Positions 7,042 to 57,114 of a stretch of DNA of 64,000 nt are shown here, piece after piece. The stretch is from a virus (Duplodnaviria; Caudoviricetes): the IMG/VR virus record IMGVR_UViG_3300025016_000004. The stretch is one strand, 5' to 3'. The notes below the pieces were generated by a model. It worked only from the letters and a program-made list of their open reading frames with translations. It ran no database searches and was not told the DNA's origin. Numbering within the stretch: position 1 is the stretch's first letter; the number at the start of each line of letters is the position of its first letter. The position numbers and the translations under genes were made by a program.

Positions 7042-7214
7042 GATATTAATTCGATTTTACCATTAAACATTCTAGCTTTTTTAATAGCTTCACCTCTTGT
7101 ATATTCCATAATTTCACCATTACCAAATGCATTACCTAAATAACCCTCAATGATTTGGCTGGGTTTTGCGTTATGAGTTTCATTTAATTTAACTCTATAA
7201 TAATTTGTTTTCAT
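7038..7214 (-). CDS. small hypothetical protein (58 aa, MKTNYYRVKLNE...)
   Basis: Hand translation; promoter 7237; ATGA overlap with next gene. Confidence 0.65.
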   Translation of the reverse strand: MKTNYYRVKLNETHNAKPSQIIEGYLGNAFGNGEIMEYTRGEAIKKARMFNGKIELIS

Positions 7215-7347
7215 GATTGTTTTGTTTTATTTAAATCAAAGATACAACAATTATTCGATACTACCAAATAAAAAAGCAACTAGAAATAGTTGCTTTTAAA
7301 AAGCGATGTTGCCATCCCCACTCCACGCAATTATACTTTTTGAAAGT

Positions 7348-7440
7348 TTAGTGTTTCCACGCTTGGTTAACTGTTCCCATTTCCCAACCTGTGAAAATAT
7401 CTTTGATTTTTCTTGCTACCGCTTTTAGTATTCGTTTCAT
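7348..7440 (-). CDS. very small protein (30 aa, MKRILKAVARKIKDIFTGWE...)
   Basis: Hand translation; directly after promoter 7461. Confidence 0.4.
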   Translation of the reverse strand: MKRILKAVARKIKDIFTGWEMGTVNQAWKH

Positions 7441-7499
7441 ATGTAAGGGATTAATTACCCCAAAGATACAACATTATTTTGAGATATGCAAATAAAATC

Positions 7500-7808
7500 T
7501 TATTTCTTTCTATCTGCGAAAATTTTATCTAATCTTTTTTGACCTTCAATCTGCGCATTAACTTCCTTTGCAGTCATTAAATGTGCGTATGGAAATCGAT
7601 ACGCATCACCCAATGGTAAATGAATTAACCCTAACGGTCGCATTTGCAATACCATATATTCAGCATAACCATCTGCCACTGGAAATCTAATAATCTCACC
7701 TGAATTCTTTCCTGTGTAACCCTTTGATTTGATGTACTTTCTTAAGGCTTCCTTAAAATCTTCTTCATCTTTAAACCATTTATCACGGTTAAAGTTAGCG
7801 AAATCCAT
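7500..7808 (-). CDS. conserved phage-type protein (GEIIRFPVADGYAEYMV...LIHLPLGDAY)
   Basis: 102-aa ORF after promoter 7865. Confidence 0.75.
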   Translation of the reverse strand: MDFANFNRDKWFKDEEDFKEALRKYIKSKGYTGKNSGEIIRFPVADGYAEYMVLQMRPLGLIHLPLGDAYRFPYAHLMTAKEVNAQIEGQKRLDKIFADRKK

Positions 7809-7896
7809 CTTTGGTAATTTAACGCTTTTTGGTACTCCATAAATGTTTTTGTTTTTCGTTTATACAAAGATAATAATAATATTTGAATTATGCAAA

Positions 7897-8148
7897 TTAA
7901 GGTAATTTATACGCTATCTTAAAAAATACTACATTACCATTAACGTTTAATGAATATAAACGCATATGTTTTCCAATTCCACCAATTGGATTTAATTTAT
8001 TTAAACGTGATTGTGACTTCTCATTAAATACAGGATTATCATTGATAACCCTCGCTTTATTCCCGATGACTTCAAGACTGTATCTTTTTGGATAAGACGT
8101 CTTAAAATTAAAATCTTTGTAAATAATGATGTTTCTGAATGTTTTCAT
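7897..8148 (-). CDS. hypothetical protein (start MKTFRNII)
   Basis: ATG at 8148 after promoter 8171. Confidence 0.65.
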   Translation of the reverse strand: MKTFRNIIIYKDFNFKTSYPKRYSLEVIGNKARVINDNPVFNEKSQSRLNKLNPIGGIGKHMRLYSLNVNGNVVFFKIAYKLP

Positions 8149-33957: not shown

Positions 33958-36858
33958 TTAATGTTTTATTTTATCCATCAATTGGTTTATATTCATTTTT
34001 TCAATTAAATTAGTTCTTTTATTCCTTACAACTATCTCAGTATCAGCGGTAAAACATTTACCTACACCAGTTGGGCCTAAGAAGATAAATGAACCAATTG
34101 GTTTTTGACCACTTCTAATACCTAACCTACTACGTCTAATTGCTTTAGAAATCTTTTTAACGGCTTCATCTTGCCCTATAATATCTTTTTTTAAATCATC
34201 TTCAAGGGTTTTAAGGCTATTACTTTCAGTGGTTGTTAATTTAGTCAATGGTATTCCAGTCATAGTTGAAATTACTGTTTCTACCATATCTGAAGTGATA
34301 ATTGTACGTTTTTTTTCGTTTTTTGCTTCCCAATTATACATCAATTCATCAACTTTAATCTCATATTCCTTACGTCTATCTCTTAACATTGCGGCATCCT
34401 CAAAATCTTGTTTATTGATGATTTCTTTCATCTTTTCTTTGAGTTTCTGGATTTCAAGTTTTAATTCCTTAATTTCAATTGGAAGTTTGATATCAATATT
34501 GGTTGATGCACCAACTTCATCTAATATATCAATAGCTTTATCAGGCATTGCTCTATCAGAAATATACCTATCGGCCAATTTAACCATTAATTCAATAATT
34601 TCATTATCATAACTAACATTGTGATAAGTTTCGTAATTTTCTTTTATGTTTTTTAGAATCGTAACAGTTTCAAGTAAACTAGGTTCGTTAATTAATACTT
34701 GTTGAAATCTTCTGGTTAATGCACCATCCGTTTCAATATTTTCTCTAAATTCATCTAATGTTGTGGCACCAATTACTTGGATTTCACCTCTAGCCAACGC
34801 TGGTTTGAATATATTTGATGCGTCTAATGAACCTGATGCGTTACCCGCACCTACAAGTGTATGTAATTCATCAATGAAAAGGATGATATCAGGATTATCT
34901 TTTAATTCAGTTAGAATAACTTTCATTCTTTCTTCGAATTGGCCTCGATATTTAGTTCCAGCAACGATTGAAGCTAGGTCTAGTGCGTAAATCTTTTTAC
35001 CTAATAAGGGTTTTGGCGCATCACCTGAGTTTATCAATAGGGCTAACCCTTCAACTATTGATGTGTTATGTGTTACAATATAATTATCTGTAATATATAA
35101 ATGATAATCATCTTCAACCATTATACATTTAGACTCCTTTCGTCCAATTAACTCTATTTTAACAATATTATTCTTAAGTGTTTTAGAATATTGATAATTA
35201 CTTGATACCTTTTCTTTTTTTCTCTTTAATAAAAATAAATTTTTTGGTGAATGGTATCTAATAGTTAAAATATATGACACTTGACCTAATTTTTTAACAC
35301 CTTTATATGTATAAGAAGTTTGTTTATCGCTTATTTTTGCTATACCACCAATAGACCAAATTAATTCTTGTATGTCTTTAATTAATTGGTAACTAGCACT
35401 TGAATATTGTAATGTACCACTATTGGTTACAGTCCCATAAGAATCCATTAAACCTTGTATGAGAGATATTTTTTGGGATAATGAACCGTTTTTATATTTT
35501 TCTGGGATAAATTTATTATTGGCTTTAGTTTCAGTTAAGTTCAATAAATCAGTCTCCCCCAATAATGGGTGTATTCTATCATTTTTATAATATCTAGTTC
35601 TATCTTCAATTAATTTATCTTCGGATAAATTAATTCTAAACGTATTTGTTTTTATCCCATCACCATTTATATTTAATTTATAATCTGACCCAATTAATTC
35701 CTCAACAGTTTCAGGTATTTCAATATCATCAGTGGTAAGTGAAAGTTCGTATTTACCAAAATGACCATCACCTAATAATAACCCCATTAAATAAGGGTCA
35801 ATAATATAATCTAAATCTTTACCCCTATTTATATTTTCAGACACCAAAGGTAATTTTAACCTATAATTAGTATTTTCAATTTTATTTTTAATATCAACTG
35901 TATTAAGAATAGACCAAGATTTTTTTCTTTCTTTACCTACTGGCATACCATAAACTTTCCATAAATGCTCACCACAAGCTTCAGTGCTTCTGCCATCTTT
36001 AAATGTCATTCTATAAATATCCTTTACGCCTTGTGGGTAAACCCCAATTATTTTAGTAGTTTTACCTTCTGGAGTTAACACAAAATCACCGACACTTATT
36101 TCACCCATAGTTGTCCAACCATTAGGTGTTAATATTTTAGCGTCAAGTGGTTGGGCTTTACCAACGCCAGGTTCGCCAATCAATACAGGGTTGTTCTTTT
36201 TACGTCTTGCTAAGATTGCTGTAACCCTTTTAATTTCATTTTCACGCCCAACTACAGGGTCTATTTTATTTTCAGTTGCATTTTTTGATATATCTATACA
36301 GAATCCATCCAATGCTGGCGTTTTAGACGAAGCTTCAATTGTTGGTCCTCTTCGTTTTTTAGGGTTTAAAGGAGAATTTTCAAAATCCTCATGTGGAATA
36401 TTTGCTTCATTGGTAGGTTCATTCATATCTGACATAAGTTTCGTTTTAAATATTTTATAATTTAGGTTAAGTTTTATTAACATTTTTTGTGCCATACATT
36501 TGGTTCTTAATAACGCTAACATAATATGTGCCTCATTAAGTACAGAATCTTTCATCCTATCACGTTCTCTTTGCATTTCTTCAACTATAAATTTAGTTTC
36601 AGGGCTAGGCAATATTTCATTACTTGATGAGTATGCTCGATTATTATTTATAATACTATTGGTTAAGTGGGTGCTTAACTCTTCGAACAATCCATCAACA
36701 TCAAAATGTAATTTACGAAGAACGGAAACAACCACATTATGGTCATGCAGAATGATAGACATAAGGATATGTTCGGGCCTAAATTTATTATCTTCATAAT
36801 CTTTAGCCTGATATATCGCTTGTTGCATCAACTCCTTGGCTGTTTTGGTCATCTCCAT
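33958..36858 (-). CDS. clpC: ClpC N-terminal half (N-domain, AAA1 with intein, UVR coil, AAA2 Walker A) ending in split-intein N-fragment
   Basis: [74 protein letters not shown]|CFTADT; promoter at 36883. Confidence 0.92.
33961..34056 (-). mobile_element. split intein N-fragment (32 aa)
   Basis: [32 protein letters not shown] directly after Walker A Lys. Confidence 0.88.
35065..36156 (-). mobile_element. class 3-type intein (364 aa, Ala1) with degenerate LAGLIDADG
   Basis: Starts AQPLDAK; Trp in block B (EHLW), Cys in block F (KCIMV), Thr in block G (VTHN); second motif GLMDSYG. Confidence 0.9.
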
Positions 36859-36970
36859 AGAATAATTAGTTTAATTTTTATACAAAGATACTAAAAAATT
36901 TTCAATAAACAAGTTGTTTTTTTATATTTTTTGTAGTATAATTGCGTAATAAAGTAAAACACAATTAATT

Positions 36971-37399
36971 ATGTTATTAAAAAGAATTGTAAATGGTGAT
37001 ATTGTAAAAGGAATTTACAAGTCATCGAACATTTTGGTTTCAGAATATAACCAAGCAAACAATGATTTAATCGTAGTCTTTAAATACGGTGGTAAGTATA
37101 AATACAACAATGTACCTAAAACTGATTTCACCAGATTTGAAATGGCTGATAGTCAAGGTGAAGTCTTAAATTCACATATCAAAAAATACACATTTGAAAA
37201 TTTAGGTAAAGTTGATACTAAGCTACTTCTTGAAAGTGTTCAAGAGGCTGTGAAAGAAAATCTAAAAGATTATCAAGGTGTTATTATTTCTGCAATGAAA
37301 GGGATGACAACTGATTGGGATGGTTCAATCTTCGATGATGATAAACTTACGAAAGTAAAAGAATTTATTAAACTTTATGATGATAAAAAAGCTGAATAG
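36971..37399 (+). CDS. KTSC-domain protein
   Basis: SSNI...Y......L.V.FK.G..Y.Y..VP...F..ADSQG. Confidence 0.75.
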   Translation: MLLKRIVNGDIVKGIYKSSNILVSEYNQANNDLIVVFKYGGKYKYNNVPKTDFTRFEMADSQGEVLNSHIKKYTFENLGKVDTKLLLESVQEAVKENLKDYQGVIISAMKGMTTDWDGSIFDDDKLTKVKEFIKLYDDKKAE

Positions 37400-37787
37400 T
37401 TGGCATTGCCAATATCTTAAAGACGAATTTATGTACTATCTAACAGAGTCTGACCCTGAAGATGGTATTATTTGTGAACATTTTTTTAATACATTTAGTG
37501 AACTTGAAATGTTTGTTATTAAGAATCGAATTCCAGTGTTTCTACCTGAGAATGTGAATGTTGGTGATATTGAGCATGAACACGAATTCTATCTTGGGCA
37601 ACAAGGTCTTACTGTTTTTGAATTTAAGTCACTTGTGAGTATGTATGAGGGAGACCTTAAAGGGAAAATGTTTAAGGCTCAATATAAAATGACCTTGGAG
37701 TTTATACGGTATGCCTCAGAAGAGGCATTGGGTGCCATGTTAAAGCAAATGTTAACTGATTTAGATAATCATATTAAAAAGAAATAA
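37377..37787 (+). CDS. hypothetical protein
   Basis: 136 aa; start uncertain. Confidence 0.55.
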   Translation: MMIKKLNSWHCQYLKDEFMYYLTESDPEDGIICEHFFNTFSELEMFVIKNRIPVFLPENVNVGDIEHEHEFYLGQQGLTVFEFKSLVSMYEGDLKGKMFKAQYKMTLEFIRYASEEALGAMLKQMLTDLDNHIKKK

Positions 37788-37790
37788 ATT

Positions 37791-38084
37791 ATGGGCAAAA
37801 TACCTGAAATTAATATTATTTTAAAGGAAATGATGGTTAAAGGGGGTGATGTTGTTTTTACAAATAAAAGTTTTTACGATAGGACTAATTTATTTGGTAA
37901 ATTAAAAATGATTTGGCGTTGGTATTGGACTGAAAGTGAAACTAAACCTTGGTTAGCTTATCTTAATACAAGAATTAAAATAAAATGGGAACCAGAATTA
38001 GCTCAAGATTTAAATGTGTTTCATAATCCTGACGCTGAATCTGAATTAATTCAATTATTAGAGAAAGAAATAATAGATGGGTAG
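37791..38084 (+). CDS. small protein carrying a major-capsid-protein-like segment
   Basis: WEPELAQDLNVFHNPDAESELIQLL is identical at 16 of 25 positions to the MCP segment WSPELAQDVSAFHNIDAEAELTAML (56440 on). Confidence 0.75.
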   Translation: MGKIPEINIILKEMMVKGGDVVFTNKSFYDRTNLFGKLKMIWRWYWTESETKPWLAYLNTRIKIKWEPELAQDLNVFHNPDAESELIQLLEKEIIDG

Positions 38085-38443
38085 TTAACTTCATTGATGA
38101 TTATAAGGGTATTCAACCATACGCTGTTAAAACTGTAACCAAATCTAAATTAATTGATGGTTCTTGGTCTAATATTATAATTACTCTTTATGACCTTATT
38201 GGCCCATCAACGACTCAAGCATTAATGGATGGTATTCGTTCTGAATGGCAAATTAATTATAGAGAAATTCCACACATCAAATATAAATTAAATATGCTTG
38301 ACCCAACAGGCGCGGTTGTAGAAGAATGGTTAATTACTGGTAAATTAAAAGAAGTTGATTTTGGAGATTTAGATTATGTTAATACTGAAATTACAGAAAT
38401 TAAACTTTTAATTGAACCTATTAGTGTTATTTTAAATTATTAA
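38045..38443 (+). CDS. T4 gp19 tail-tube-like protein without an upstream ATG
   Basis: Frame open from 38045: NRWVVNF, GIQPYAVK, W..I.ITLYD.IGPSTTQALMD, LDPTGAVVEEW, DFGDLDY; first ATG only at 38225. Confidence 0.6.
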   Translation: MNSIIRERNNRWVVNFIDDYKGIQPYAVKTVTKSKLIDGSWSNIIITLYDLIGPSTTQALMDGIRSEWQINYREIPHIKYKLNMLDPTGAVVEEWLITGKLKEVDFGDLDYVNTEITEIKLLIEPISVILNY

Positions 38444-38544
38444 TAATTTAAAAAAATAATTAAAAAATAATGGCCTGACTTTAAAATTACTATAAAAAGG
38501 GTTTTTTGTAAGTTTTTCTATATTTATATATAAAAAGATTTTGT

Positions 38545-38775
38545 ATGAATATAATGAATAATGTGATACACCCATCAGCTAGTGCTGATTTCACTGGTTA
38601 CACATATACGAAGGTATATGCTGGTGCTATTGCAACTCCAACAATTAATGGTACTTCAGTAGCAATGGCCGCTGGACATACCATTGATATTCTTGTACAA
38701 TCTATTTCTGGTACAGCTAATGTATATGTATTAGGGTATAAAAAAATTATAGCACCTTCGGTGATAAACGGATAA
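38545..38775 (+). CDS. small beta-rich putative virion protein
   Basis: 76 aa, first gene after late-type motif 38520. Confidence 0.6.
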   Translation: MNIMNNVIHPSASADFTGYTYTKVYAGAIATPTINGTSVAMAAGHTIDILVQSISGTANVYVLGYKKIIAPSVING

Positions 38776-38794
38776 AATAAATTAACAGTTAAAA

Positions 38795-39514
38795 ATGGAA
38801 AAGAATAATAATATTAGACCAGTTGGTTTAAAAGGAAATGACCAAGTAAACAGGATGCGTTCATTAATGGGAATGACACCTATTCATGAAAATACAAAAA
38901 CTTCAGTTGTTGAACTAACTAAAATGGGTCCTGATGGTATGGTTTATGGTATCGTTAGAGAAAACCATAAATATTTTATTAAAATAACTAATAAAAAACA
39001 AAATTTAGTTGCTGAAGATTTTATGTACATCGGTGGTTTGAAAAACAAAACCGAAAAAGCATATGATAGCTATTCTCAAGCTACTAAACAATTAAATCTT
39101 AAATTTTTAAGTCTTAATGAAGCTTTGGGTAAAACTGAACAAATCAATGTCTTAAAAAATGATAATTTATTAGCTGAACAATTTGATGCTTATCCTGAAA
39201 GCCCAAAAGGAAGTCAACCAGACAAACCATTAGGAACCGTTAAAGAAATGGGGAAAAATGATGGTCATGAAAAAGAAATTATTGGTGATGAAGGTGAAGA
39301 AGGAAACCCTGATGTTGACACTCCACCTGTTGTAGAAGAAGATGAAGAAATCACTGAAGAAGATGGTGTTGAATTAACTGAATCTGAAAAAGCTATCGAT
39401 AATATTATTCGTGAGTTAAGGGGTGATGTATTAACCGAAAACCAAAAACTTAGTATTTCTACAGCGATTAAAAAAATCCAAGAAGGCGAACAAAGCTCAA
39501 AAAAAAAAGTATAG
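38795..39514 (+). CDS. acidic head-module protein ending SKKKV
   Basis: 239 aa, several LxE motifs; ends in an A10 run. Confidence 0.75.
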   Translation: MEKNNNIRPVGLKGNDQVNRMRSLMGMTPIHENTKTSVVELTKMGPDGMVYGIVRENHKYFIKITNKKQNLVAEDFMYIGGLKNKTEKAYDSYSQATKQLNLKFLSLNEALGKTEQINVLKNDNLLAEQFDAYPESPKGSQPDKPLGTVKEMGKNDGHEKEIIGDEGEEGNPDVDTPPVVEEDEEITEEDGVELTESEKAIDNIIRELRGDVLTENQKLSISTAIKKIQEGEQSSKKKV

Positions 39515-41052
39515 TTGAACTTGATAATATTTCAGGTCAAGAAAATATAGGATACCATGATAGACTAAATAAAGTCTATGGTGATATCCCTAATATTATT
39601 GGTTTACATTTTGGTGAGAAGTCAAAAGAATTAACTGGTAAACTACACACAGCTGTTAATAACAGCGATTTCCAAGGTCAAAATAATGTTAGTTGGAGCG
39701 TAAATTATGAAGATGGTTTAATCCTTCGTGGTTATTACGGTAAAAATGGTCGTACTATTAGTGTATGGGCTAAATACTATTCATTCAGTATGGAAAGTGC
39801 TATTGAAGTTTGTAAATTAATTGGTAAATTAATTGGGATGTGGGGTATGGATGCTTCAGAAATCAATTCTCACGTTTCAGAAATAGTAAAAGCTTTAACA
39901 GGTGAGTATAACACTGACCTAGATGTTATTTTAGAGTCAAAAAAATTAGCTGAAACCAAATTTAAACTTAAATTAGATAACCCATCACCTGAGCCACAAG
40001 CTCCAGATATGGGTACTCCAGCTTCAGGTGATGAATTCGGTGGCGATATTCCAAGTGAAGAACCTATGGATGGTGGTTTTGGTGGTGAAGAAACACCTTC
40101 AAGTGAAAAGCCATTTGATGATGAGCCATTCGATGCTGGCGTTGAGGCTGATGAAGATGCAAGTCCAGAAAAATACATACAACAATTATCAGGTAAATTA
40201 GGTCAAAGCTTAAGAAAATACACTGAAGATATGGGCGCACCTGACTATGATTTAGAAAAATTCGCAATCAATTCTGTATTGTCCGCAACCAACTCTGGTG
40301 AAATGGACCAAGAAGACCAATCAGACATCATACAAAAAGTCAAATCATCAACTACTGATGGGACTGGTAAGAAAAATGACGAGCCAGAAACAGCTGATGA
40401 CGGAACTAATGACGAAGCTAATGGTGATGAAGAAGGTTTAGATTTAAGTGGAATCGACATGGAAGAAAGCCATAATTCAAATGCCAATAAAAAAACTGTA
40501 TTTCAAGACCCTACTTTAGGTGTTAAAGATGATGGAATGGAAGAAAATAAGTATTTAAACTTGGAAAATATTAAAAAAAGTAGTAACATTGTAGATAAAC
40601 AAATAATTAAGAAAATGCTTAAAGAAAGTCTAACTACAATTGAGCCACAGGTTAAGCCACAGGTTAAGCCAAGTGTTGCTCCTACTAGAAGAGCTAAACC
40701 TTATAGAATCATTCCTGAACAATTGCCTGACCCAAAGCCAAAAGCTGAAAAAAAAAAGGGTGATGCGACATTCATAAAAGATTCTGGGTTTTCAGAAGAT
40801 GGAAATTCGGTAACTATTAAATTTGATGTTGAAGGTCAACCAAATAGATTTGTCGCTAATTTTATCAATTCTGGCGAAGTGTTGGAGAAACCTAAAGCTT
40901 ATGATGAACCGTATGTTTACGCATACGAAACAGAGAATATAATGCCTAATGGTAAACAATATTATGTAGAAATAGCTAAATTTGGCCATCAAGAAAATCC
41001 TGATGCCCCAATATTTATTGATGGTGATATTCCTGTAATACACGAAGTTTAA
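39502..41052 (+). CDS. acidic Pro-rich head-module protein; frame open ~96 codons before the first ATG (likely -1 extension of 38795)
   Basis: -1 frame open from the A10 run (SIVELDNISG...) straight into MESAIEV at 39790. Confidence 0.7.
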   Translation, partial: KKSIVELDNISGQENIGYHDRLNKVYGDIPNIIGLHFGEKSKELTGKLHTAVNNSDFQGQNNVSWSVNYEDGLILRGYYGKNGRTISVWAKYYSFSMESAIEVCKLIGKLIGMWGMDASEINSHVSEIVKALTGEYNTDLDVILESKKLAETKFKLKLDNPSPEPQAPDMGTPASGDEFGGDIPSEEPMDGGFGGEETPSSEKPFDDEPFDAGVEADEDASPEKYIQQLSGKLGQSLRKYTEDMGAPDYDLEKFAINSVLSATNSGEMDQEDQSDIIQKVKSSTTDGTGKKNDEPETADDGTNDEANGDEEGLDLSGIDMEESHNSNANKKTVFQDPTLGVKDDGMEENKYLNLENIKKSSNIVDKQIIKKMLKESLTTIEPQVKPQVKPSVAPTRRAKPYRIIPEQLPDPKPKAEKKKGDATFIKDSGFSEDGNSVTIKFDVEGQPNRFVANFINSGEVLEKPKAYDEPYVYAYETENIMPNGKQYYVEIAKFGHQENPDAPIFIDGDIPVIHEV

Positions 41053-43277: not shown

Positions 43278-45140
43278 ATGCTTACAGCTGGTGAAGTATT
43301 AGAGGAATATGGTAAATGCCTAATGGACCCTTGCTATGCGATTACCGAATTTTTAAAAACATTCGATAAAACGCAAGAAGGTTTTGTGCCTTTTAAATTA
43401 TTCCCAAAACAAGTTGAAATTGTTGAAGCTTATAGAAATCATAGGTTCACAATGGTTACTAAACCTAGACAGGCTGGCGTATCTACTACAACAGCGGCCT
43501 ATGCTTCAGTTATATCAGTTTTTGCTGACCCTAACAACCCTGAACATATATTAATCCTTGCCAACAAACAAGACATGGCCTTTGAATTCTTGGATAAAAT
43601 TAAAGACTTTATTGTTCAATTTCCAAGATGGGTGTGGGGCTCTGATTATTATGGTACACCTGAAAAGGAAAGTAAATCAATATTCTCGACAGAATCTAAA
43701 AAAGAACTTAAATTACCTAACGGTAGTAGGATTAAAGCTGTTGCTACATCTAAAAACGCATTAAGGGGCTTCACACCTACTTGGTTAATTATGGATGAAG
43801 CTGCCTTCATCGATAATGGTGCGGTAACCTATACAACAGCGTTAACAGCTTTAGGTACTGGTGGTCGTGTTTCTTTAGTTTCTACACCTAACGGTTACGA
43901 TGAATTATATCATAAAACATATGAACAAGCAAAAAGTGGTGATAATGATTACCATGTAGTTGAAATGAAATGGTATCAAGACCCACGATACACCACAAAT
44001 CAAAATTCAAAACTAAGAGATTTAGTTTGGATTAATGAAGAAGATGAGACTGATATAATAAAAGAAGTTAAGTACATAAATTTCGGTGATTCTGAAGAAA
44101 CCGTTGAAGGTGTTTATGGTCATTATGAAGATATGATTAGAAAGGGTTATAAACCTAGTTCAAGTTGGTACGTTAGTATGTGTAGGGGTATGAACAATAA
44201 TAAACGTATGATTGCTCAAGAGCTTGATGTATCGTTTATTGGTTCTGGTGGTAACGTTATTGACACCAAAGATATTCAAAGACAGGAAAAATTATTTGTT
44301 ACTGAACCTAATTGGATTGAAAACGATGAGTTTGGTGAGATTTGGTTATGGGAAAAACCAATTGCTGGTCATCAATATATTTTATCTGCCGATGTTGCTA
44401 GAGGTGATGGGGAAGATTATTCAACCATTATCATATTAGATTTCACTACAATGACTCAAGTCATGGAATTTAGAGCTAAATTACAATCTGATTTATTAGG
44501 TTATGTAGTTGATAAATGGGCTAGAATTTATGAAGCTTTGGTTGTGGTTGATATTACTGGTGGTATTGGAGTTGGAACTGTTAATAAATGTATGGAAATT
44601 GGTACACCTAATTTATATTATGGTGAAACAACTAACAAACCACTTGATAAGAAAACTAATAAGGTTAAATTTGAGAGTGATGAAGGTAAGTATCCAGGTT
44701 TTAACTGTTCGGCTGGGCTTAGAACGCCAGTAGTTGCTCGTTTTGAAATGATGATTAGAACTATGGGTGTTAAAGTTCGTTCTAGGAGATTAATTTCAGA
44801 AATGAATACATTCGTATTTAAAAACGGTAGAGCTGACCATCAAGATGGATTTCACGATGATTTAATTATGGCTATGGCTTATGCATTGTGGGTAGCTGAA
44901 TATTCATTTAAAAAATTAGCTGTAGCTAAAGAGAAAACTAAAGCAATGTTAAGCGCATGGTCAATAAATAACGCTGGTAATAGAGCACCTAGTGATGGTT
45001 ATATTAGTGACGCTTTCATTTCTAAGACAGATAGACAGAAAAAAGTAACAGCTAAACAGCCTAAATTCACACCACAGGTTGCAAAAAATATGCAAGACCC
45101 TACAGGTAAATACATGTGGTTATTTAGTGGTAGTAGATAA
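43278..45140 (+). CDS. terL: terminase large subunit (T4 gp17-like)
   Basis: Q-motif LFPKQ, KPRQAGVST, WLIMDEAAF Walker B, STPNG, SADVARGDGEDYS RNase H, HDDLIMA. Confidence 0.93.
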   Translation: MLTAGEVLEEYGKCLMDPCYAITEFLKTFDKTQEGFVPFKLFPKQVEIVEAYRNHRFTMVTKPRQAGVSTTTAAYASVISVFADPNNPEHILILANKQDMAFEFLDKIKDFIVQFPRWVWGSDYYGTPEKESKSIFSTESKKELKLPNGSRIKAVATSKNALRGFTPTWLIMDEAAFIDNGAVTYTTALTALGTGGRVSLVSTPNGYDELYHKTYEQAKSGDNDYHVVEMKWYQDPRYTTNQNSKLRDLVWINEEDETDIIKEVKYINFGDSEETVEGVYGHYEDMIRKGYKPSSSWYVSMCRGMNNNKRMIAQELDVSFIGSGGNVIDTKDIQRQEKLFVTEPNWIENDEFGEIWLWEKPIAGHQYILSADVARGDGEDYSTIIILDFTTMTQVMEFRAKLQSDLLGYVVDKWARIYEALVVVDITGGIGVGTVNKCMEIGTPNLYYGETTNKPLDKKTNKVKFESDEGKYPGFNCSAGLRTPVVARFEMMIRTMGVKVRSRRLISEMNTFVFKNGRADHQDGFHDDLIMAMAYALWVAEYSFKKLAVAKEKTKAMLSAWSINNAGNRAPSDGYISDAFISKTDRQKKVTAKQPKFTPQVAKNMQDPTGKYMWLFSGSR

Positions 45141-45199: not shown

Positions 45200-48100
45200 A
45201 TGACACAACAAAAGTTAACAGTATTTCAAAAACTAGGTAATGTTTTTGGTAAAGATGGGTTAAACCCACATGTTAAAAAAACCAACAAATATTCGTTAGG
45301 TAATAGTGAGTTACTTAAAACTCAAGATAAAGGTGAGTTTGAAGTTGCTAAATTACAAGCGCAACAAAATAAGTATTTACTTAATCAATGGCAAAAAGTT
45401 GATGGTGAATTATATCAACAAGCTATCCATTATGAAACAACAAGAATTGGTTCATATTCTGATTTTGAAACTATGGAATTCTATCCAGAAATTTCAGCTA
45501 CTTTAGATATTTTCATGGAAGAATCAACAACACCAAATGATAAGGGTGATGTAATCAATGTATATTCAGGTAGTAAACGTGTTAAAAGAATATTGGAAGA
45601 TTTATTAATCAATAGATTAGATATTCACACATCTTTACCTATGTGGACCAGAAACCTTCCCGTAAGAGAGGATAGTATAATTCCATTATTGGATGGAACT
45701 GAGGTAACTATTAAAGATTTATCCAAAATAATTAAAAATGGTGAAGAAGTTTGGTCTTATGCAATTCAAGATAATACCAAGGCGATTGTACCAAGTAAAA
45801 TTATTTGGTGTGACCTTACAAGAAAGAATAGTGAATTATTTAGAGTGACCTTTGATGATGGGACGCATATTGATACCACACCAGACCATGAGTATATGCT
45901 TAGGGACGGTTCATTCAAGAGAGCTGACCAGTTGAGTAAGGGGCAGTCGTTGATGCCGTTTTATACTAGAAAAAGTGAAAAGAAAAAAGATTGCATAGAT
46001 GGTTATGAAAAAGTTTATAACCCATCAACTGGTAAGTATAAATTTACACATTCTATGGTTTCACATCAGTGTGTCCGAGATTTGGATTATGAAAAATCTA
46101 TTGGGTGTCAATTTGATACTCACCACGTAGATTTTAATAAATTGAATAATGACCCACGTAATTTAAATAGAATGACGCATTCTGACCACTTTAAATTACA
46201 TGTTAAACATTTTGATAAAATATTAGGTTCACCAGAGGTTATTAAAAAAAGAATGGATGGGATTGATAAATACTTAAGGTCTGATGAGAGAAAAGAACGA
46301 CTTTCTTTAGAAATGAGTGGAATTTACCCAAAATATTTCGAAGAATATAATAATAGTGAGTTACATAGCGAACATAATTTAACCAATTGGAAATCTGGTG
46401 AGTTCATACAAAAAACTAAAAAAGGTATGACGATTGAACTAACAGATGGGTGTTTAAATTATATTTCTGATTTAATTATTAAATCAGATAAATTCATCCC
46501 TATTAGTAAATTATCCAAATTATTAAAAGGTGATGATAAATTTATAGAATTATTTAAAATAAATTATAGATTAAGAAAGGATATTACTAAATCAATTAAC
46601 AAAACCACTTTAAATAAAAATTTAATTAGAAAGATTGGTTTGAATTACTTTGACTATGTATCATCAATTAACCCAAGTTTAGTGTTAGATAAGGGTTACA
46701 TAAAAGCTAAATCAATTAGTTTAGGTAGAAAAAAAGAAAAGGTTTTACTAAATCATAAAGTGGTTTCTGTTGTTAAATTAACTGAAACTTCTGATGTATA
46801 TTGTTTAGAGGCAGTTGGTCCAAATGGTGAAAGTGATAGACATAATTTCCCAATTTGTAGTAAAGATTCTAATAATCAACATACTAGAGGTGGTGTATTT
46901 TTGTCCAACTGTAAATATGGGGATAATTTTGTTCATTTAAATATAGACCAAACTGCTGGTATCATAGGTGCTAGACAATTACCTAATTTTGAGATAGAGC
47001 GTAGAGAAAATGATATTCAAGGTATTATATCACAATCTCAGTTAGAGGGGGTTAATGCTGATGAAGGTAAAAATAAAACTAGATTCTTTTGGAAGGGTAG
47101 GGATATTACATTTAATTCTTGGCAAATAGCTCACTTTAGATTATTAGGTGATGATAGAAAATTACCTTATGGAACTTGTTTAAAAGGTGATACTAGAATT
47201 AATACCATCGATGGGGTTAAAGAAATTTCGGAAATTAAAAAAGGTGATATAGTTTATAGTTTTAACATTAAGACACAGTCTATAGAATCATCACCAGTTT
47301 TAGATACGATAAATTCTGGTAAAAAAGAATGTTTTAGAATTGGTAGTAGACACAATTTTGTTGATGCCTCTAAAGAACATAAAATATTAATATTAGAAAA
47401 TGATGAGTTTATTTATAAAAATGTGTTAGATTTAAAATTAGGTGATTTATTAGTAATTAATAAAAATGAAAAAACTAAAGAACTTATTAAAATAGATAAA
47501 AGTAAACCAAATGATAATAAAAATGGGTGGTCTAATGATATGGATTTATTTCCAGATTATGTAAATGAAGATTTTGCACAATTATTTGGCTTTTTAATTG
47601 GCGATGGATGGGTAAATCACACAGTAAATACGGTATCTTTTGTCTTAGGTGAGGATGAAGAAACAAATGAATATTACATAAATTTATTAAAAAAATTCAG
47701 TGGTGGTAATCCTAGAGTTGTAAATAATGGTAATCAAGTAGTTTTATCATCTAAATTATTATCAACAATTTTAGAAAGGATGGGATTCAAAGGAAAGTCA
47801 TACGAAAAAAGATTACCAAAATGGATTTACAATACAACCCCTGAAATACAAAAATCATTACTAGCTGGTTTAATGGATGCCGATGGTTGGTGGACTAAAG
47901 ATGAGTGGGTTGTTGGTTGTCATATTGAATTGAATAATGAACAATTAATTAAAGATTTAAAGATATTATTACAACGAATTGGTTATAAGTCTGGGTCAAT
48001 TAGAAGTAGGGTTAGAAAATCCCCAATTATTGAAGGTCGTGAAATTAAAAATGTTAGAGAAAGTTTTATGATAACATTTTTTGATTCATATTTAACCCAA

Positions 48101-49531
48101 ATGAAAAAATATGAAAATAGTAATAGGTTATTGGATAACTATATATTAGAGCCGATTACTATAATTGAAAGTATTGGTGAATTTGAGACATTCGATATTT
48201 ATGTGGAAAATGAAAATCATAATTTTTATGCTAATAATATTGTGGTTCATAATAGTTTCTTAGAAAAAGCAAGACGTATCTGGAAACAATTGATATTGGC
48301 TGAAGATGCTATGCTTGTTTATCGTGTAACTAGAGCACCAGAAAGACGTGTATATAAAATATTTGTTGGTAACATTGATAATGAGGATATTCCTGCTTAC
48401 GTAGATGAAATTGCAAATAGATTTAAACGTTCTCCACTTATTGACCCACAAACTGGTCAAATGGATTTAAGATACAATCAATTAGGTATTGACCAAGATA
48501 TTTTCGTTCCAACAAGAAGTGAAGATGCGGCCACACCAATTGATACCCTTCCAGGTGCGCAAAACTTAGACCAAATCGCTGATATTGAATACTTACAAAG
48601 AAAATTATTCACAGCGTTAAGAGTTCCAAAAACATTTTTAGGTTTTGAGGAACCAACAGGTGAGGGTAAAAACCTTGCATTGCAAGATATTAGATTCTCA
48701 AGAACTATAAACAGAATTCAACAAGCAATGCTTCACGAATTAAATAAAATTGCGATTATCCATTTATACTTAATGGGCTTCCATGATGATATAGATAATT
48801 TCACATTAACGCTTAATAACCCATCAACTCAAGCTGAAATGCTTAAGATTGAACATACTGCGGCTAAAGTAACTCTTTACAAAGATGCTGTAGCTGATGC
48901 TGGTAACGGTTTTGGTGCTATGTCAATGACTAGAGCTAAAAGAGAAATCTTAGGTTGGAGTGATGATGAAATTAAGCAAGATTTACTTGAACAAAGAATT
49001 GAAAAGGCTGCGGCTGCTGAATTAGAAAACACTGCTAATGTAATTAAAAATACTGGTGTATTTGATAGAGTAGATAGAGTTTATGGTGATATGGAAATGG
49101 CTAAAATCGGTGGTCAAGTTGATGAAGAAGGTAATGCTGCTGGTGAATCTGGTGGTAGTGCTGGAGGTGGTGGCGGCTTTGGTGGCGGCTTCGATGCTGG
49201 TGAATTAGATTTGGGTGATGAAGAAATTGATACTGAAGGTGAAGAAGGGTTAGGTGAAATTGGGGGTGAAGAAGGATTAGGTGGACCTGAAGCTGGACCT
49301 GAAGATACTACAACTGAAGAAGGTACAACTAAAAAAGGTAGATTAATCAATGAAACGGTTAATAAAAAACCTAAAGACATTTCTACTAAAAAGTACTTAG
49401 AACTGTTAAATGAAAGTGTTAGTGAAGATGATAAGAACAACAACGAAATCACTAAGATTTACGATAAATCCATCAAATTTAATGATGATTTAAATTCAAT
49501 GATTAATGAAATAGATTCGAAATTGGGATAA
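45200..49531 (+). CDS. portal protein (T4 gp20-like) with two inteins
   Basis: Exteins YPEISATLDI, WTRNL|CKYGDNF, IAHFRLLGD..LPYGT|SFLEKARRIWKQL..AEDAM..YR..RAPERR, LPGAQNL. Confidence 0.93.
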   Translation: MTQQKLTVFQKLGNVFGKDGLNPHVKKTNKYSLGNSELLKTQDKGEFEVAKLQAQQNKYLLNQWQKVDGELYQQAIHYETTRIGSYSDFETMEFYPEISATLDIFMEESTTPNDKGDVINVYSGSKRVKRILEDLLINRLDIHTSLPMWTRNLPVREDSIIPLLDGTEVTIKDLSKIIKNGEEVWSYAIQDNTKAIVPSKIIWCDLTRKNSELFRVTFDDGTHIDTTPDHEYMLRDGSFKRADQLSKGQSLMPFYTRKSEKKKDCIDGYEKVYNPSTGKYKFTHSMVSHQCVRDLDYEKSIGCQFDTHHVDFNKLNNDPRNLNRMTHSDHFKLHVKHFDKILGSPEVIKKRMDGIDKYLRSDERKERLSLEMSGIYPKYFEEYNNSELHSEHNLTNWKSGEFIQKTKKGMTIELTDGCLNYISDLIIKSDKFIPISKLSKLLKGDDKFIELFKINYRLRKDITKSINKTTLNKNLIRKIGLNYFDYVSSINPSLVLDKGYIKAKSISLGRKKEKVLLNHKVVSVVKLTETSDVYCLEAVGPNGESDRHNFPICSKDSNNQHTRGGVFLSNCKYGDNFVHLNIDQTAGIIGARQLPNFEIERRENDIQGIISQSQLEGVNADEGKNKTRFFWKGRDITFNSWQIAHFRLLGDDRKLPYGTCLKGDTRINTIDGVKEISEIKKGDIVYSFNIKTQSIESSPVLDTINSGKKECFRIGSRHNFVDASKEHKILILENDEFIYKNVLDLKLGDLLVINKNEKTKELIKIDKSKPNDNKNGWSNDMDLFPDYVNEDFAQLFGFLIGDGWVNHTVNTVSFVLGEDEETNEYYINLLKKFSGGNPRVVNNGNQVVLSSKLLSTILERMGFKGKSYEKRLPKWIYNTTPEIQKSLLAGLMDADGWWTKDEWVVGCHIELNNEQLIKDLKILLQRIGYKSGSIRSRVRKSPIIEGREIKNVRESFMITFFDSYLTQMKKYENSNRLLDNYILEPITIIESIGEFETFDIYVENENHNFYANNIVVHNSFLEKARRIWKQLILAEDAMLVYRVTRAPERRVYKIFVGNIDNEDIPAYVDEIANRFKRSPLIDPQTGQMDLRYNQLGIDQDIFVPTRSEDAATPIDTLPGAQNLDQIADIEYLQRKLFTALRVPKTFLGFEEPTGEGKNLALQDIRFSRTINRIQQAMLHELNKIAIIHLYLMGFHDDIDNFTLTLNNPSTQAEMLKIEHTAAKVTLYKDAVADAGNGFGAMSMTRAKREILGWSDDEIKQDLLEQRIEKAAAAELENTANVIKNTGVFDRVDRVYGDMEMAKIGGQVDEEGNAAGESGGSAGGGGGFGGGFDAGELDLGDEEIDTEGEEGLGEIGGEEGLGGPEAGPEDTTTEEGTTKKGRLINETVNKKPKDISTKKYLELLNESVSEDDKNNNEITKIYDKSIKFNDDLNSMINEIDSKLG
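45659..46909 (+). mobile_element. non-canonical intein (417 aa): Pro1, block-F Cys, HNH endonuclease insert
   Basis: PVREDSIIPLLDG aligns to CLxxDTxIPLLDG; TTPDH block B; THHVDFNKLNNDPRNL HNH; VYCLE; ends FLSN, +1 Cys. Confidence 0.85.
47177..48253 (+). mobile_element. intein (359 aa) with LAGLIDADG endonuclease
   Basis: CLKGDT, ASKEH, FGFLIGDG and LAGLMDADG, FDIYV, VVHN, +1 Ser. Confidence 0.95.
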
Positions 49532-51733: not shown

Positions 51734-51790
51734 TCATAAAGATTAGGTTTTTTTATGTTTATTAGCATATTTATTGAGAAAGAGTATAAT

Positions 51791-53605
51791 ATGTCAGATG
51801 AATATAAAATAATTAGAGGGGGTAAAACTGGTACGGGTTTACTTATAGAGGGTGACGCTGGTTTTATCGAACCTAATGATTTAAGAAATAGACCATTCAT
51901 TAATGAGGTTAGTAAGATAGGTAGTACTAGTCAAATTATGATTGAACCCCTTATATTATTTGTTGTATTACAAAAATATGGAGTTGAGAATAGAAACGGT
52001 AGAATTTACCCAGAACACATATTAAAGAGAGAAGCTAAAAACTACGAAGAGCTTATCAGAAATAGATTGGCCATTGGCGAATGCGTTCCAAAGGGTACTG
52101 AAATTTTCACGGAAAATGGTTGGGTAGAAATTCAAGATATGAATGTTGGTGATAATATATTCACTTTAAATGTCGAAAATAATCAATTGGAGATACAACC
52201 AGTTATTAGAACTACCAATAAGAAATATGAGGATGATATGATTCATATATATAATTCATCATCATTGGATATGTTAGTAACTAAAAAACATAAAATAGTT
52301 TTATGGGATAGAAATGATAAACCATACATATTAACCGCTGAAGAATTATATGATAAAATAAATAAAAATGATTCTAGAATATCACATTCATATATTAGAA
52401 ATTCTGGTGAATGGGTTGGTGATGATGTTACACATATTAACATACCTAACTCTAATTATTCAATTGATGCAGAATTATGGGCGAAATTTTTAGGTATATT
52501 CCTAGCCGATGGTCATTGTTCTGGAACTAGAGGTGGTCAAATAAAAAATGCTGTTATTATTACTCAAGTAAAAGATAAATCATCTTTAAAGGTTATTGAA
52601 ATGTTAGATGAATTACCTTTTGAATATTCAATTAGTGATGATAGACAATATATAATTTATGATGAAGCATTACATAAATTTTTATTTGAATTAGGTAATT
52701 CAGAGGAAAAATTTATACCTAACTACGCTAAAAATTGGAATGTTGGGTTATTAAACACTCTATTAGATTGGATGCTTTTGGGTGATGGTAGGAATAGAAC
52801 TGACAGAAATGGTAACTTGATGAAAGAATATTATACGATTTCAGATAAACTTTCGGAAGATGTTTTTGAGGTTATGCTCAAAATATCAAATGGTGCGACA
52901 TTTAACAAACGAATTCAAGAAGATAGGTATATTACCGACACTAAATTTATTACTGAAGAAGTTGAAGTTGATGGGATGTTAGAGTTAATTAAAAGGGAAG
53001 TTAAAGTTAAAAGATTAATTAAAGCTATTAATTCAAAACCTTTACATATAATATCAGAAAGACGTGCTAAAGGTATCACGTTAGATACTAGATTTACTAA
53101 AGCTGAAAAAGTACCGTTTAATGATAATGTTTATTGTGTTACAGTTAACAATGGAACTTGGTTAATGAGATATAATGGGAAAATTTCTTGGACACATAAT
53201 AGTGACCACCCAGAATCATCAGTAATTTCAAACAGTAGAGTTTCACACGAAATCAAAAAAATTTGGTGGGAAGGTCATACGCTTGTTGGTGAAATAGAAA
53301 TCATTATGTCACCTGGTTTTATCAATCAAGGAATCATTTCTTGTGAAGGTGACCAAATAGCTAATATGCTAAGAAAAGGAATTCGTGTTGGTGTATCTTC
53401 AAGAGGTGTTGGTTCACTAGAAGAAGTTGCTGGTAAATTATTGGTGCAAGATGATTTTGAATTAATTTGTTGGGATATTGTGACTAGTCCTAGTACTCCA
53501 GGCTCATATATGTTTAACAAAAGGTCTGACGCTCAGCCATTTATGGAAGGTGAAGAAAAGGGAAAAGACCTATTAATAGATAAATTAAATAAATTTTTAC
53601 TATAA
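51791..53605 (+). CDS. prohead protease (T4 gp21-like) with intein
   Basis: ENRNGRIYP, AIGE|SDHP, VGVSSRGVGS, FELICWDIV..PST. Confidence 0.93.
   Translation: MSDEYKIIRGGKTGTGLLIEGDAGFIEPNDLRNRPFINEVSKIGSTSQIMIEPLILFVVLQKYGVENRNGRIYPEHILKREAKNYEELIRNRLAIGECVPKGTEIFTENGWVEIQDMNVGDNIFTLNVENNQLEIQPVIRTTNKKYEDDMIHIYNSSSLDMLVTKKHKIVLWDRNDKPYILTAEELYDKINKNDSRISHSYIRNSGEWVGDDVTHINIPNSNYSIDAELWAKFLGIFLADGHCSGTRGGQIKNAVIITQVKDKSSLKVIEMLDELPFEYSISDDRQYIIYDEALHKFLFELGNSEEKFIPNYAKNWNVGLLNTLLDWMLLGDGRNRTDRNGNLMKEYYTISDKLSEDVFEVMLKISNGATFNKRIQEDRYITDTKFITEEVEVDGMLELIKREVKVKRLIKAINSKPLHIISERRAKGITLDTRFTKAEKVPFNDNVYCVTVNNGTWLMRYNGKISWTHNSDHPESSVISNSRVSHEIKKIWWEGHTLVGEIEIIMSPGFINQGIISCEGDQIANMLRKGIRVGVSSRGVGSLEEVAGKLLVQDDFELICWDIVTSPSTPGSYMFNKRSDAQPFMEGEEKGKDLLIDKLNKFLL
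52082..53200 (+). mobile_element. intein (373 aa) with LAGLIDADG-type domain
   Basis: CVPKGTEIFTENGW, VTKKH, FLGIFLADG and MLLGDG, VYCVTV, WTHN, +1 Ser. Confidence 0.93.
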
Positions 53606-55314: not shown

Positions 55315-57114
55315 ATGTCAAATTTTTTAACTTCAGGTCAAGTTGGTAATATCGGACTTAACCATATGAAACAAGTGAGAGAAAATACTATCAACAAGTG
55401 GGATAGTTTAGGATTCTTAGATGGTCTTAAAGGTCATGTAAAAGAAAACATCGCTCAATTATATGAGAACGAAGCTTCTCATTTATTAAACGAATCAACT
55501 GACGCTTCTAGCTCAGGTTCTTTCGAAACAGTGGTATTCCCTATCGTTAGGAGAGTATTCTCTAAATTATTAGCAAATGATATTGTATCTGTACAAGCTA
55601 TGAATATGCCAATTGGTAAATTATTCTTCTTCGTACCTCAAACATCTGCTAGGTATGACAACGTAACTAATACTTACGGTGACCCTCACAAAGATGGTTC
55701 ACAATATTCTGCACACACTTCAATGGGTGCTGATGGTCTTCCATTAGTAAGAAACGCTTCTACAGGTTATGCTGTAACTGACTATTTAGCTAAAAACTTA
55801 TATGATATTTACTATAATGACGGATTATTTGATGCGTCTAAAGGTGCTATCACTATTAAAGTTGGCTCTGGTAACTTAGTGGTTTTATCTGCTAGTGGTA
55901 CTTACAGTGCTGCTGGTGCTTTAAGTACTCTTCCAACTGCAACTGATGGGTCTTTAAGAAACGCAATTTTACAAGTTTCTGGATTTAGCTCAACAGCTAA
56001 AGGTAGATTAACTGGTCCAGATGGTAACCAAATGGATACTGAATCTTTCTTAGCTTCTTTAAAAGTAACTTCTACAGTTGCTTTAAATGACCAAGATGGT
56101 AATGCTATCATTGCTGCTGCTGGTGAAGTTCCTTTCAGATTAGTAACTCAAAAATATGGTAAAGGTATCGTTTCTTACGATGACATTTGCGATGTTAACG
56201 GTGTTATCTACTTAGAATTAGATATGACTCACCCAGTAGATGCTGCTGGTACATCAACTTATGATGGTTATGTTGGTCTTGACGCAACAGGTGCTACCGT
56301 ATCTGGTTTAACAGCTAGTAACTTCCCAGTTTCTTGGGCAGAATATGCTACATTAGAACTTGAAACTGAAATGGGAGAAGTATCTTTCAAATTAGATGAA
56401 GTTGTTGTTTCTGTTGAAGAAAGAAAATTGAGAGCTACATGGTCTCCAGAATTAGCACAAGATGTTAGTGCATTCCACAACATTGACGCTGAAGCTGAAT
56501 TAACTGCTATGTTATCTGAGCAAGTTGCTGCTGAAATCGATAGAGAAATCTTAAGAGACATCAGAAAAGCCGCTGCATGGCAATTGAGATGGGATTGGAA
56601 CGGATGGAGAAAAGCTTCTCTAGCTGCTAATGCTTATACTCAAAAAGACTGGAATCAAACTTTAATTACTAAAGTTAACCAAATTTCAGCACAAATCCAT
56701 AAATCTACTCTTAGAGGTGGTGCAAACTTCATCGTGGTTTCTTCTGAAATCTCTGCTGTGTTTGACGATTTAGAATACTTCCACGTATCTGATGCATCTC
56801 CAGAGCAAGACCAATATAATATGGGTATCGAGAAAATCGGTTCATTAAGCGGAAGATACCAAGTGTATCGTGACCCTTATGCTCCATCTTGGTCACTTAT
56901 TATGGGACATAAAGGTAAATCATTGTTAGACACTGGTTACATCTACGCACCTTACGTGCCAATGCAACTTACACCTACAATGTACAACCCATTCAACTTT
57001 GCACCAGTAAAAGGTATTATGACTCGTTATGCGAAAAAAATTGTTAACAACAGATTTTATGGGGCTGTAAGAGTTGATGGTCTACAAACATTCAACATTA
57101 ACGAATTAAGATAA
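55315..57114 (+). CDS. major capsid protein (T4 gp23-like)
   Basis: VFPIVRRVF, VSVQAM..P.G..F, RKLRATWSPELAQD, EAEL...LSEQ...EIDREI, F.PVKGIMTRYA. Confidence 0.95.
   Translation: MSNFLTSGQVGNIGLNHMKQVRENTINKWDSLGFLDGLKGHVKENIAQLYENEASHLLNESTDASSSGSFETVVFPIVRRVFSKLLANDIVSVQAMNMPIGKLFFFVPQTSARYDNVTNTYGDPHKDGSQYSAHTSMGADGLPLVRNASTGYAVTDYLAKNLYDIYYNDGLFDASKGAITIKVGSGNLVVLSASGTYSAAGALSTLPTATDGSLRNAILQVSGFSSTAKGRLTGPDGNQMDTESFLASLKVTSTVALNDQDGNAIIAAAGEVPFRLVTQKYGKGIVSYDDICDVNGVIYLELDMTHPVDAAGTSTYDGYVGLDATGATVSGLTASNFPVSWAEYATLELETEMGEVSFKLDEVVVSVEERKLRATWSPELAQDVSAFHNIDAEAELTAMLSEQVAAEIDREILRDIRKAAAWQLRWDWNGWRKASLAANAYTQKDWNQTLITKVNQISAQIHKSTLRGGANFIVVSSEISAVFDDLEYFHVSDASPEQDQYNMGIEKIGSLSGRYQVYRDPYAPSWSLIMGHKGKSLLDTGYIYAPYVPMQLTPTMYNPFNFAPVKGIMTRYAKKIVNNRFYGAVRVDGLQTFNINELR

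Follow-up and report, generated by a model that had tools for sequence, protein, structure and literature searches.

Two short overlapping reading frames, lying between a Clp-type ATPase/KTSC-domain gene block and the head module of a large T4-related phage, carry what look like pieces of structural proteins outside the structural operon. The first is a frame of 97 codons (ORF1) that resembles the phage's own major capsid protein (MCP) over part of its length, and the second, in the -1 frame relative to it, resembles a tail-tube protein. Are these small frames functional mimics of capsid and tail proteins, the two halves of a recoded fusion, or the residue of a genetic accident? The evidence described below makes the last answer the probable one. 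In particular, the locus is likely to be a deletion or replacement scar, composed of a beheaded paralog of a tail-tube-fold gene (hereafter gp19l) and of a truncated chimeric orphan frame.

The locus and its setting

The window, that is, the whole stretch of 64,000 nucleotides that was analysed, has a GC content of 30% and contains a T4-type head module with large terminase, portal, prohead protease and MCP (Table 1). It belongs to a large, T4-related phage that is abundant in aquifers and groundwater and has a genome of roughly 315 kb. A nucleotide search with positions 36900-39600 against 50,697 phage records gave no match, and no RNA run is found among the sequencing runs listed for the stretch.

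Table 1. Positions of the features discussed in the text (window coordinates, unless preceded by the name of a related contig)
Feature	Position	Strand	Remark
KTSC-domain gene	36971-37399		5' of the head module, along with the Clp-type ATPase
g136 (136 aa)	37377-37787	+	last left-side gene conserved in relatives; tblastn, blastn, alignment
Patch of 274 nt	37790-38063	+	without counterpart in relatives
ORF1, chimeric orphan frame of 97 codons	37791-38084	+	ORF list, protein searches, codon usage
MCP-like 34 codons of ORF1	37971-38072	+	BLASTP; corresponds to own MCP residues 371-404
gp19l remnant, codons 47-172 of an accessory tail-tube-fold gene	38063-38443	+	-1 frame relative to ORF1
Right junction	38064	+	identity to L002 resumes: 36/36 nt, then high identity
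72-aa ORF from first in-frame ATG	38225-38443	+
Promoter-like motif TATATTTAT	38519-38527	+	ahead of g76
g76	38545-38775		next gene after the gp19l remnant
Motif occurrences	13151, 17159, 19813, 38519, 43257	+	ORFs 13164, 17190, 19826, 38545; terminase 43278
Large terminase	43278-45140
Portal, gp20-type, intein-bearing	45200-49531	+
Prohead protease	51755-53605
MCP, gp23-type, 599 aa	55315-57114
Genuine MCP segment resembling ORF1	56425-56526	+	nearly invariant across 75 related MCPs
Motif ahead of intact gp19l	L002:3650-3679; L004:5971-6000
thyA-like genes of relatives	L002:1788-3077; L004:4041-5414; L092 (G001) 6923-8020		L092: reverse strand
Bracket genes of the canonical tube in G004	L094:5929-7599; L094:8300-9847	-; +
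Peptidase_S74 fibre gene	L108:15912-19268; L190:1761-4853; L109:15912-18734		about 102,985-106,340 in window coordinates
DNA polymerase B/SNF2 region	L190:11188-19454		about 112,676-120,942 in window coordinates

The layout could be suspected to arise from a chimeric join or an indel introduced during assembly or sequencing. As far as contigs can show, this is refuted, and we assign it practically no probability: an independent ENA assembly is 100% identical to the window over 401 nt spanning both junctions, all sampled words of 37600-38600 are present in contigs of 24 groundwater/aquifer runs of 2017 (which may all stem from one campaign), and gene calls for ORF1 and for the 72-aa ORF of the tube-like frame, each without a single letter changed, appear on at least 62 contigs.

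Inteins and strain differences are found elsewhere in this phage. Specifically, the Clp-type frame of the window (33958-36858, minus strand, 966 aa) has an insertion of about 360 aa with LAGLIDADG matches, which the syntenic 604-aa gene of a related contig (L004:973-2787), an intein-free Clp allele, does not have. The portal frame, of 1443 aa, shows intein splicing-domain matches in two stretches, LAGLIDADG and a weak HINT match; gene order might have suggested a sheath for this frame, which is a T4 gp20-type portal instead. Weak intein matches occur in DNA polymerase B (1514 aa) and in an SNF2-type helicase (969 aa), and inteins of this phage are also present in the Clp, portal, DegT-type and other genes. 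In addition, a Peptidase_S74-bearing tail-fibre-like gene, located after a 1950-aa gene, has 1118 aa in one sample and 1030 aa in another; two independent assemblies break at this gene (NODE_210 ends and a JGI contig starts there), which looks population-variable. Strain differences are also observed between L106:11336-14087 and L107:10753-13570, with a LAGLIDADG-bearing gene of 757 versus 779 aa and an adjoining gene of 148 versus 116 aa.

The tail-tube-like frame and its intact relatives

The initial annotation had correctly read this frame as open from 38045 and without an ATG until 38225. The frame follows a TGA at 38042-44, and GTG and TTG are likewise missing from that interval. Its match to phrog_4542 ('tail tube protein') has an E of 1.9e-5, and at E<=1e-3 it retrieves 495 proteins of the tube family, many of them with PF06841. 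Neither the frame nor its close relatives match Pfam, and a PDB sequence search with the tube alignment returned no match. The fold was evaluated on P0002, a full-length relative with 94% identity, rather than on the fragment in the window: the model of P0002 (pLDDT 88.2) finds in Foldseek, among others, the T4 baseplate-tube, T4 gp19 (5w5f), AFP/PVC tubes and lambda V. The comparison of predicted structures that had been proposed for the two frames was thus positive for the tube relative, which matches the gp19 fold, and turned out otherwise for ORF1, as described below. In other words, gp19l belongs to the tube family by both sequence and fold; in the window, its domain is no longer complete, as the start codon and the (Y/F)EPK of strand 1 are lost.

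Intact gp19l genes of 155-172 aa, each with its own start, were found in four related contigs (L002, L004, L007 and G001), and a protein search retrieved three close full-length versions, one of 172 aa (94% identity) and two of 171 aa (76% and 74%). The order of genes in L004 is Clp-KTSC-g141-g102-thyA (457 aa)-g179-gp19l (171 aa)-g76-g239...terminase; L002 shows thyA-g184-gp19l, L007 shows gp19l-g76-g239, and G001, an IMG/VR record that shares 94% identity with the window in the MCP segment, shows KTSC-131 aa-123 aa-thyA (365 aa)-gp19l (155 aa)-73 aa. Accordingly, a thyA-like gene and small genes precede gp19l in three of the four relatives, while this block is absent throughout the 64-kb window. 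The thyA-like genes of the relatives (365-457 aa) are characterized by long variable insertions and C-terminal extensions.

Comparison with these relatives places the two junctions. On the left, g136 has 66% amino acid identity to the 141-aa gene of L004, and beyond about 37789 the window no longer shows homology to L004. The patch that follows stands for about 2.4 kb of L004, comprising the 102-aa gene, the thyA-like gene of 457 aa, the 179-aa gene, the promoter-like motif and gp19l codons 1-46. The right junction falls, out of frame, between the (Y/F)EPK and the RNNRW of the family, so that the remnant lacks start codon, first 46 codons and upstream motif. An N-terminal extension, MKNTPxNNGKDV, is common to gp19l family members down to 46% identity; since this extension is so widely shared and (Y/F)EPK is near-invariant, the intact state is ancestral and the state of the window derived. 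The relatives carry a single intact gene with its own ATG, and the layout of two frames is not conserved. Absence from relatives, or a frameshift in them, had been named in the initial annotation as the outcome that would count against its reading; this is what is found for ORF1, whereas for the tube-like frame the situation is reversed, with the relatives intact and the window broken.

The motif lost in the window is CATATTTATTAT, which is conserved about 25 nt ahead of intact gp19l in the relatives and is gone ahead of the remnant. It resembles TATATTTAT, which in the window precedes g76, the terminase and further genes. TATATTTAT or CATATTTAT lies 13-31 nt ahead of several gene starts in the window, and also ahead of intact gp19l in the relatives. 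The overall count of the motif (11 versus 7.4 expected) is not significant by itself and it is the placement that stands out; TATATTTAT/CATATTTAT is probably a phage promoter motif.

Downstream of the junction, the whole 126-residue core of gp19l is intact, with 94% identity to an intact relative. Compared with L002, it shows 8 replacement and 7 silent differences and a dN/dS of 0.29, no higher than between intact genes; this value would fit a very recent truncation, without proving loss of function. The window branch has 3 replacement and 1 silent changes and the L002 branch 2 and 3, counts that are too small for a test, and the ratio of 3:1 on the window branch hints at relaxed constraint. 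The core in the window would represent a fresh, not yet decayed pseudogene.

Can such a core still be expressed? One possibility is that ribosomes reach it from ORF1 through a -1 or +2 shift, the product being a fusion of about 217 aa whose N-terminal part is new, or that its translation begins at a non-AUG start near 38045-38065. The integrity of the core is in favour of this possibility, as is the overlap of 40 nt between ORF1 and the tube-like frame. However, a -1 shift fusing the two fragments, as had been suggested, finds neither an X_XXY_YYZ heptamer nor a homopolymer of at least five in the productive overlap (38045-38084), and the heptamers at 37820 and 38009 in ORF1 run into -1-frame stops. 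Furthermore, no Rfam element is matched, the conserved (Y/F)EP start of strand 1 is missing, the sole near-cognate candidates for a non-AUG start are ATT codons without supporting signal, and the layout is accounted for by a junction absent from relatives. Of the two features expected of a programmed -1 frameshift, that is, a slippery site in the overlap and a layout conserved in relatives, the locus shows neither. An alternative genetic code was rejected, as the -1 frame before 38045 has many TAA, TAG and TGA stops, and readthrough of the stop of ORF1, as read from the bases, would lengthen it by about 17 codons only. With stops, slippery sites, Rfam and start codons examined, no route to expression of the tube core was found, and we regard recoding or a non-AUG start as very unlikely.

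The 72-aa ORF, on the other hand, has an ATG, and its gene calls on many contigs would be compatible with expression of a half-domain that caps or poisons the tail tubes of competitors. Against this stand its start within the helix of the tube fold, with the last three strands only, the loss of the promoter-like motif of the parent gene, and the fact that no half-length family was met among the 495 tube matches, short ones left aside. Such a role is thus hardly to be expected, and the more general proposal of an interference with competing phages receives no support, the tube-like frame being the leftover of a gene that is whole in close relatives.

A different question is whether the parent gene was the structural tail tube of the phage, which, judging from the comparison of relatives, it probably was not. 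In the complete relative G004 (345 kb), thyA is directly followed by the g76 homolog and the gp19l slot is empty. The only tube-fold gene of G004 (162 aa) is of the canonical type, with the loops typical of gp19 proper; it lies 7 kb past a likely sheath gene of 819 aa (PF04984, below threshold) and its product is 35% identical to gp19l of G001. Five further complete relatives have one strong tube gene each, all close to that of G004, and across the best 80 of 401 relatives from metagenome contigs the canonical tube shows 86-92% identity. The gp19l sequences, six in all (the window, three close relatives and two relatives at 46-49%), form a separate clade with support 97/92. In short, gp19l does not behave as a sheath-adjacent, conserved core gene and is an optional accessory paralog beside the head module. 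Given the empty slot in G004 and the canonical tube near the likely sheath, gp19l looks dispensable; as it is optional, its loss should be tolerated, which fits the abundance of this phage.

The phage of the window presumably builds its tail tube from a canonical gene elsewhere in its genome. Exact-protein look-ups along contigs of the same phage, up to about position 122,700, met no canonical tube while passing a glycosylation island, tail-fibre-like genes of 1950 and 1118 aa, a gp13-like gene, DNA polymerase B and the SNF2 helicase. Among the 15 members listed for the 90% cluster of the G004 tube, none derives from the 314,960-nt contig, and the samples known to hold this phage are not among the best 80 of the 401 canonical-tube loci. 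In G004, two genes of about 515-556 aa flank the canonical tube gene, one on each side; they are transcribed divergently, away from the tube gene, and resemble each other at their N-termini. A 603-aa gene is found between sheath and tube.

ORF1, a chimeric orphan frame with a capsid-like segment

ORF1 is made of two kinds of DNA. Its first 91 codons are patch DNA, while the last six (KEIIDG) and the TAG stop derive from gp19l DNA and are out of frame with that gene. The stretch in which the initial annotation had counted 16 identities with the MCP of the phage over 25 positions was confirmed and corresponds to MCP residues about 377-401. BLASTP aligns ORF1 residues 61-94 to MCP residues 371-404 with 16/34 identities (47%; E 5e-11 pairwise, and 1.4e-8 when every ORF of the window is searched), and at the DNA level the match is 79% over 58 nt. 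The first 60 residues have no match in the MCP in any frame. The same 34 residues are weakly matched by Pfam Gp23 (PF07068; E 0.0025, 17.7 bits versus a cut-off of 24.4), only over positions 150-183 of the 376 of the model, and by phrog_138 (E 0.002). With a score below the gathering threshold, ORF1 does not qualify as a member of Gp23, and neither does it possess a complete HK97-type fold, since 34 of its 97 residues are similar and its models, from single-sequence AlphaFold and the ESM Atlas, have low confidence (pLDDT 48 and 0.39; no usable structural neighbour). The similarity is real homology, confined to a very small piece. This piece aligns to about residues 200-233 of mature T4 gp23, presumably where the E-loop strand of the HK97 fold ends and the spine helix begins.

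The capsid-like piece appears to be old. Across 75 related MCPs, the corresponding segment has a pN of 0.044 and a pS of 0.57, while ORF1 compared with related MCPs gives a pN of 0.33 and a pS of 0.53-0.80, that is, a replacement divergence 6-7 times that among real MCPs; the hallmark residues PELAQD, FHN, DAE and EL are kept. As synonymous sites are near saturation, the piece did not arise by a recent duplication of the phage's own MCP. The closest of 80 related MCP genes is 56% identical in amino acids and 79% in nucleotides, all of them being about equally distant, and T4 gp23 reaches about 44% by hand count; no donor was identified among the 80. The homology extends right up to the junction at 38064, which is consistent with the piece having been cut there. 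The alternative offered in the initial annotation, that the two frames are decayed duplicates, came closer to the truth than its other proposals, and needs correction on both pieces: the tube piece is a truncated accessory paralog and not a decayed copy of the structural tube, and the saturation of synonymous sites speaks against a recent duplicate of the MCP.

No relative of ORF1 has been met in any collection searched. Among 5.8 billion proteins it forms one cluster with a single member sequence, corresponding to its own exact copies; a search for relatives among longer proteins and an IMG/VR scan were likewise negative, and in five related phage records (one of them complete, of 345 kb) ORF1 matches the real MCP gene only. 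The IMG/VR scans with ORF1 and with the tube-like frame yielded no usable match; L001 was a chance match within a 2608-aa protein. The N-terminus of ORF1 (MGKIPEINII...) was also considered as a possible gp19l N-terminus and rejected, as alignment scores are at chance level: when its 5' DNA is compared with the first 140 nt of three gp19l genes, 12-57% of random windows score equal or higher. An intron or a structured RNA in the patch was discarded for want of any Rfam match at E<=1.

Despite its orphan status, ORF1 has coding character. The codon usage of the patch in the frame of ORF1 scores 0.46 on a stop-free model, on which nine spurious ORFs range from -0.42 to 0.13 and neighbouring genes from 0.10 to 0.51; this usage is of the coding type in both the capsid-like part and the remainder. 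In addition, ORF1 starts 3 nt past the stop of g136, a spacing typical of real genes here, and an open frame of 97 codons is unlikely to arise by chance in DNA of 30% GC. Coding-type score, tight spacing and long open frame together mean that ORF1 may still be translated and could function. The combination of a coding-type patch with an old capsid-like piece suggests that the source was probably a truncated, so far unsampled ORFan gene.

These observations also define how far a functional interpretation can go. ORF1 could be a living small ORFan gene of the variable slot that follows g136, whose capsid-derived helix segment acts on assembly or titrates a capsid sensor: its coding-type codon usage and tight spacing are what such a gene would show, and its frame has stayed open, with the hallmark residues kept, although synonymous sites relative to the MCP are near saturation. 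However, such a gene has no homolog except identical copies and is absent from the five relatives, its 3' end, with six codons and the stop, derives from gp19l DNA out of frame, and its capsid homology is cut at the junction. Moreover, its pN is far above that of real MCPs, its fold confidence is low, and the segment differs from the Gol region of T4 gp23 (PMC3014915). On balance we consider this unlikely. A still less probable variant, based on fully coding-like codon usage, on a frame intact despite saturation and on the kept polar hallmark residues, is that ORF1 or a longer parent gene was an old small protein built around the capsid-derived segment and maintained as a coding gene, for instance as a predicted capsid mimic modulating assembly or blunting capsid-sensing defence. 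As for a decoy directed at sensors of capsid or tail proteins, which the initial annotation had put forward, one would look for conservation across phages or an association with anti-defence functions; ORF1 is confined to one clonal population, is absent from every relative examined and ends in out-of-frame gp19l DNA, so that this proposal receives no support. ORF1 is most likely a truncated chimeric frame without function.

A probable recombination scar compared with known systems

A single event could account for both frames. The scar would sit in a variable slot flanked by the Clp/KTSC block on one side and the head module on the other. In the ancestor, this slot would have contained a small ORFan gene followed by a thyA-like gene, in some cases a further small gene, and finally gp19l, an accessory tube-fold paralog (155-172 aa) that has a promoter-like motif and a start of its own. 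One recombination would have fused the 5' portion of a coding sequence not sampled elsewhere, the present ORF1, to gp19l codon 47, out of frame. By doing so, it would have taken away the promoter motif of gp19l, its start codon, its N-terminal 46 residues and the (Y/F)EPK of the first strand and, in the same event, would have severed the capsid-like segment of the donor gene in mid-homology. The patch would thus be the 5' part of a real ORFan gene, in the slot occupied by the unrelated genes of 102 aa in L004 and 123 aa in G001, and the 3' part of this ORFan, with the rest of its capsid-derived segment, would have been lost in the event that beheaded gp19l. We infer that neither ORF1 nor any product of the remnant has a function.

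In terms of annotation, the best labels for the pair are truncated tube-fold paralog (pseudogene) and chimeric orphan ORF, and the two 'hypothetical proteins' should not be counted as structural mimics or recoding sites. More generally, large T4-related phages of the Bacteroidota type carry an optional second tube-fold gene beside the head module, which can be lost. Of broader interest is the source of this old, capsid-like fragment of coding sequence.

Three known systems are relevant to this locus. The first is Gol, a stretch of T4 gp23 that activates the Lit protease (PMC3014915). Like the segment of ORF1, it is a short stretch of a T4-type MCP, and Gol can act by itself; unlike it, Gol is situated within the first quarter of gp23, and in the MCP of this phage its counterpart is residues 72-105, while the piece in ORF1 corresponds to residues 371-404. 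At the level of titles and abstracts, the literature yielded no phage-encoded capsid-fragment decoy. The second system is T4 gp19 itself (PF06841; PDB 5w5f, 5iv5). The gp19l parent shares with it the tube fold (Foldseek probability 1.00, TM 0.5-0.57) and a detectable sequence similarity to gp19-type proteins; it differs in forming a clade without the canonical loops, in lying beside the head module and not the sheath, in being missing from a complete relative and, in the window, in being truncated and start-less.

The third comparison is with the hyperplastic regions of T4-type phages, in which insertion, deletion and replacement are known (Arbiol et al. 2010, PMC2839356; Comeau et al. 2014, PMC4122927; Petrov et al. 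2010, PMC2993671). As in those regions, a variable ORFan slot is here enclosed between conserved blocks, relatives differ by whole genes (thyA-like, small ORFans and gp19l), and promoter-like motifs stand ahead of the shuffled genes. A stem-loop cassette was not found at the junctions of the window. Unlike in T4-type cassette exchange, the right break lies inside a gene and leaves two truncated frames; as the break is within a gene, and not that of an intergenic cassette, the event looks like random illegitimate recombination. Scar events of this kind are already well known in T4-type phages.
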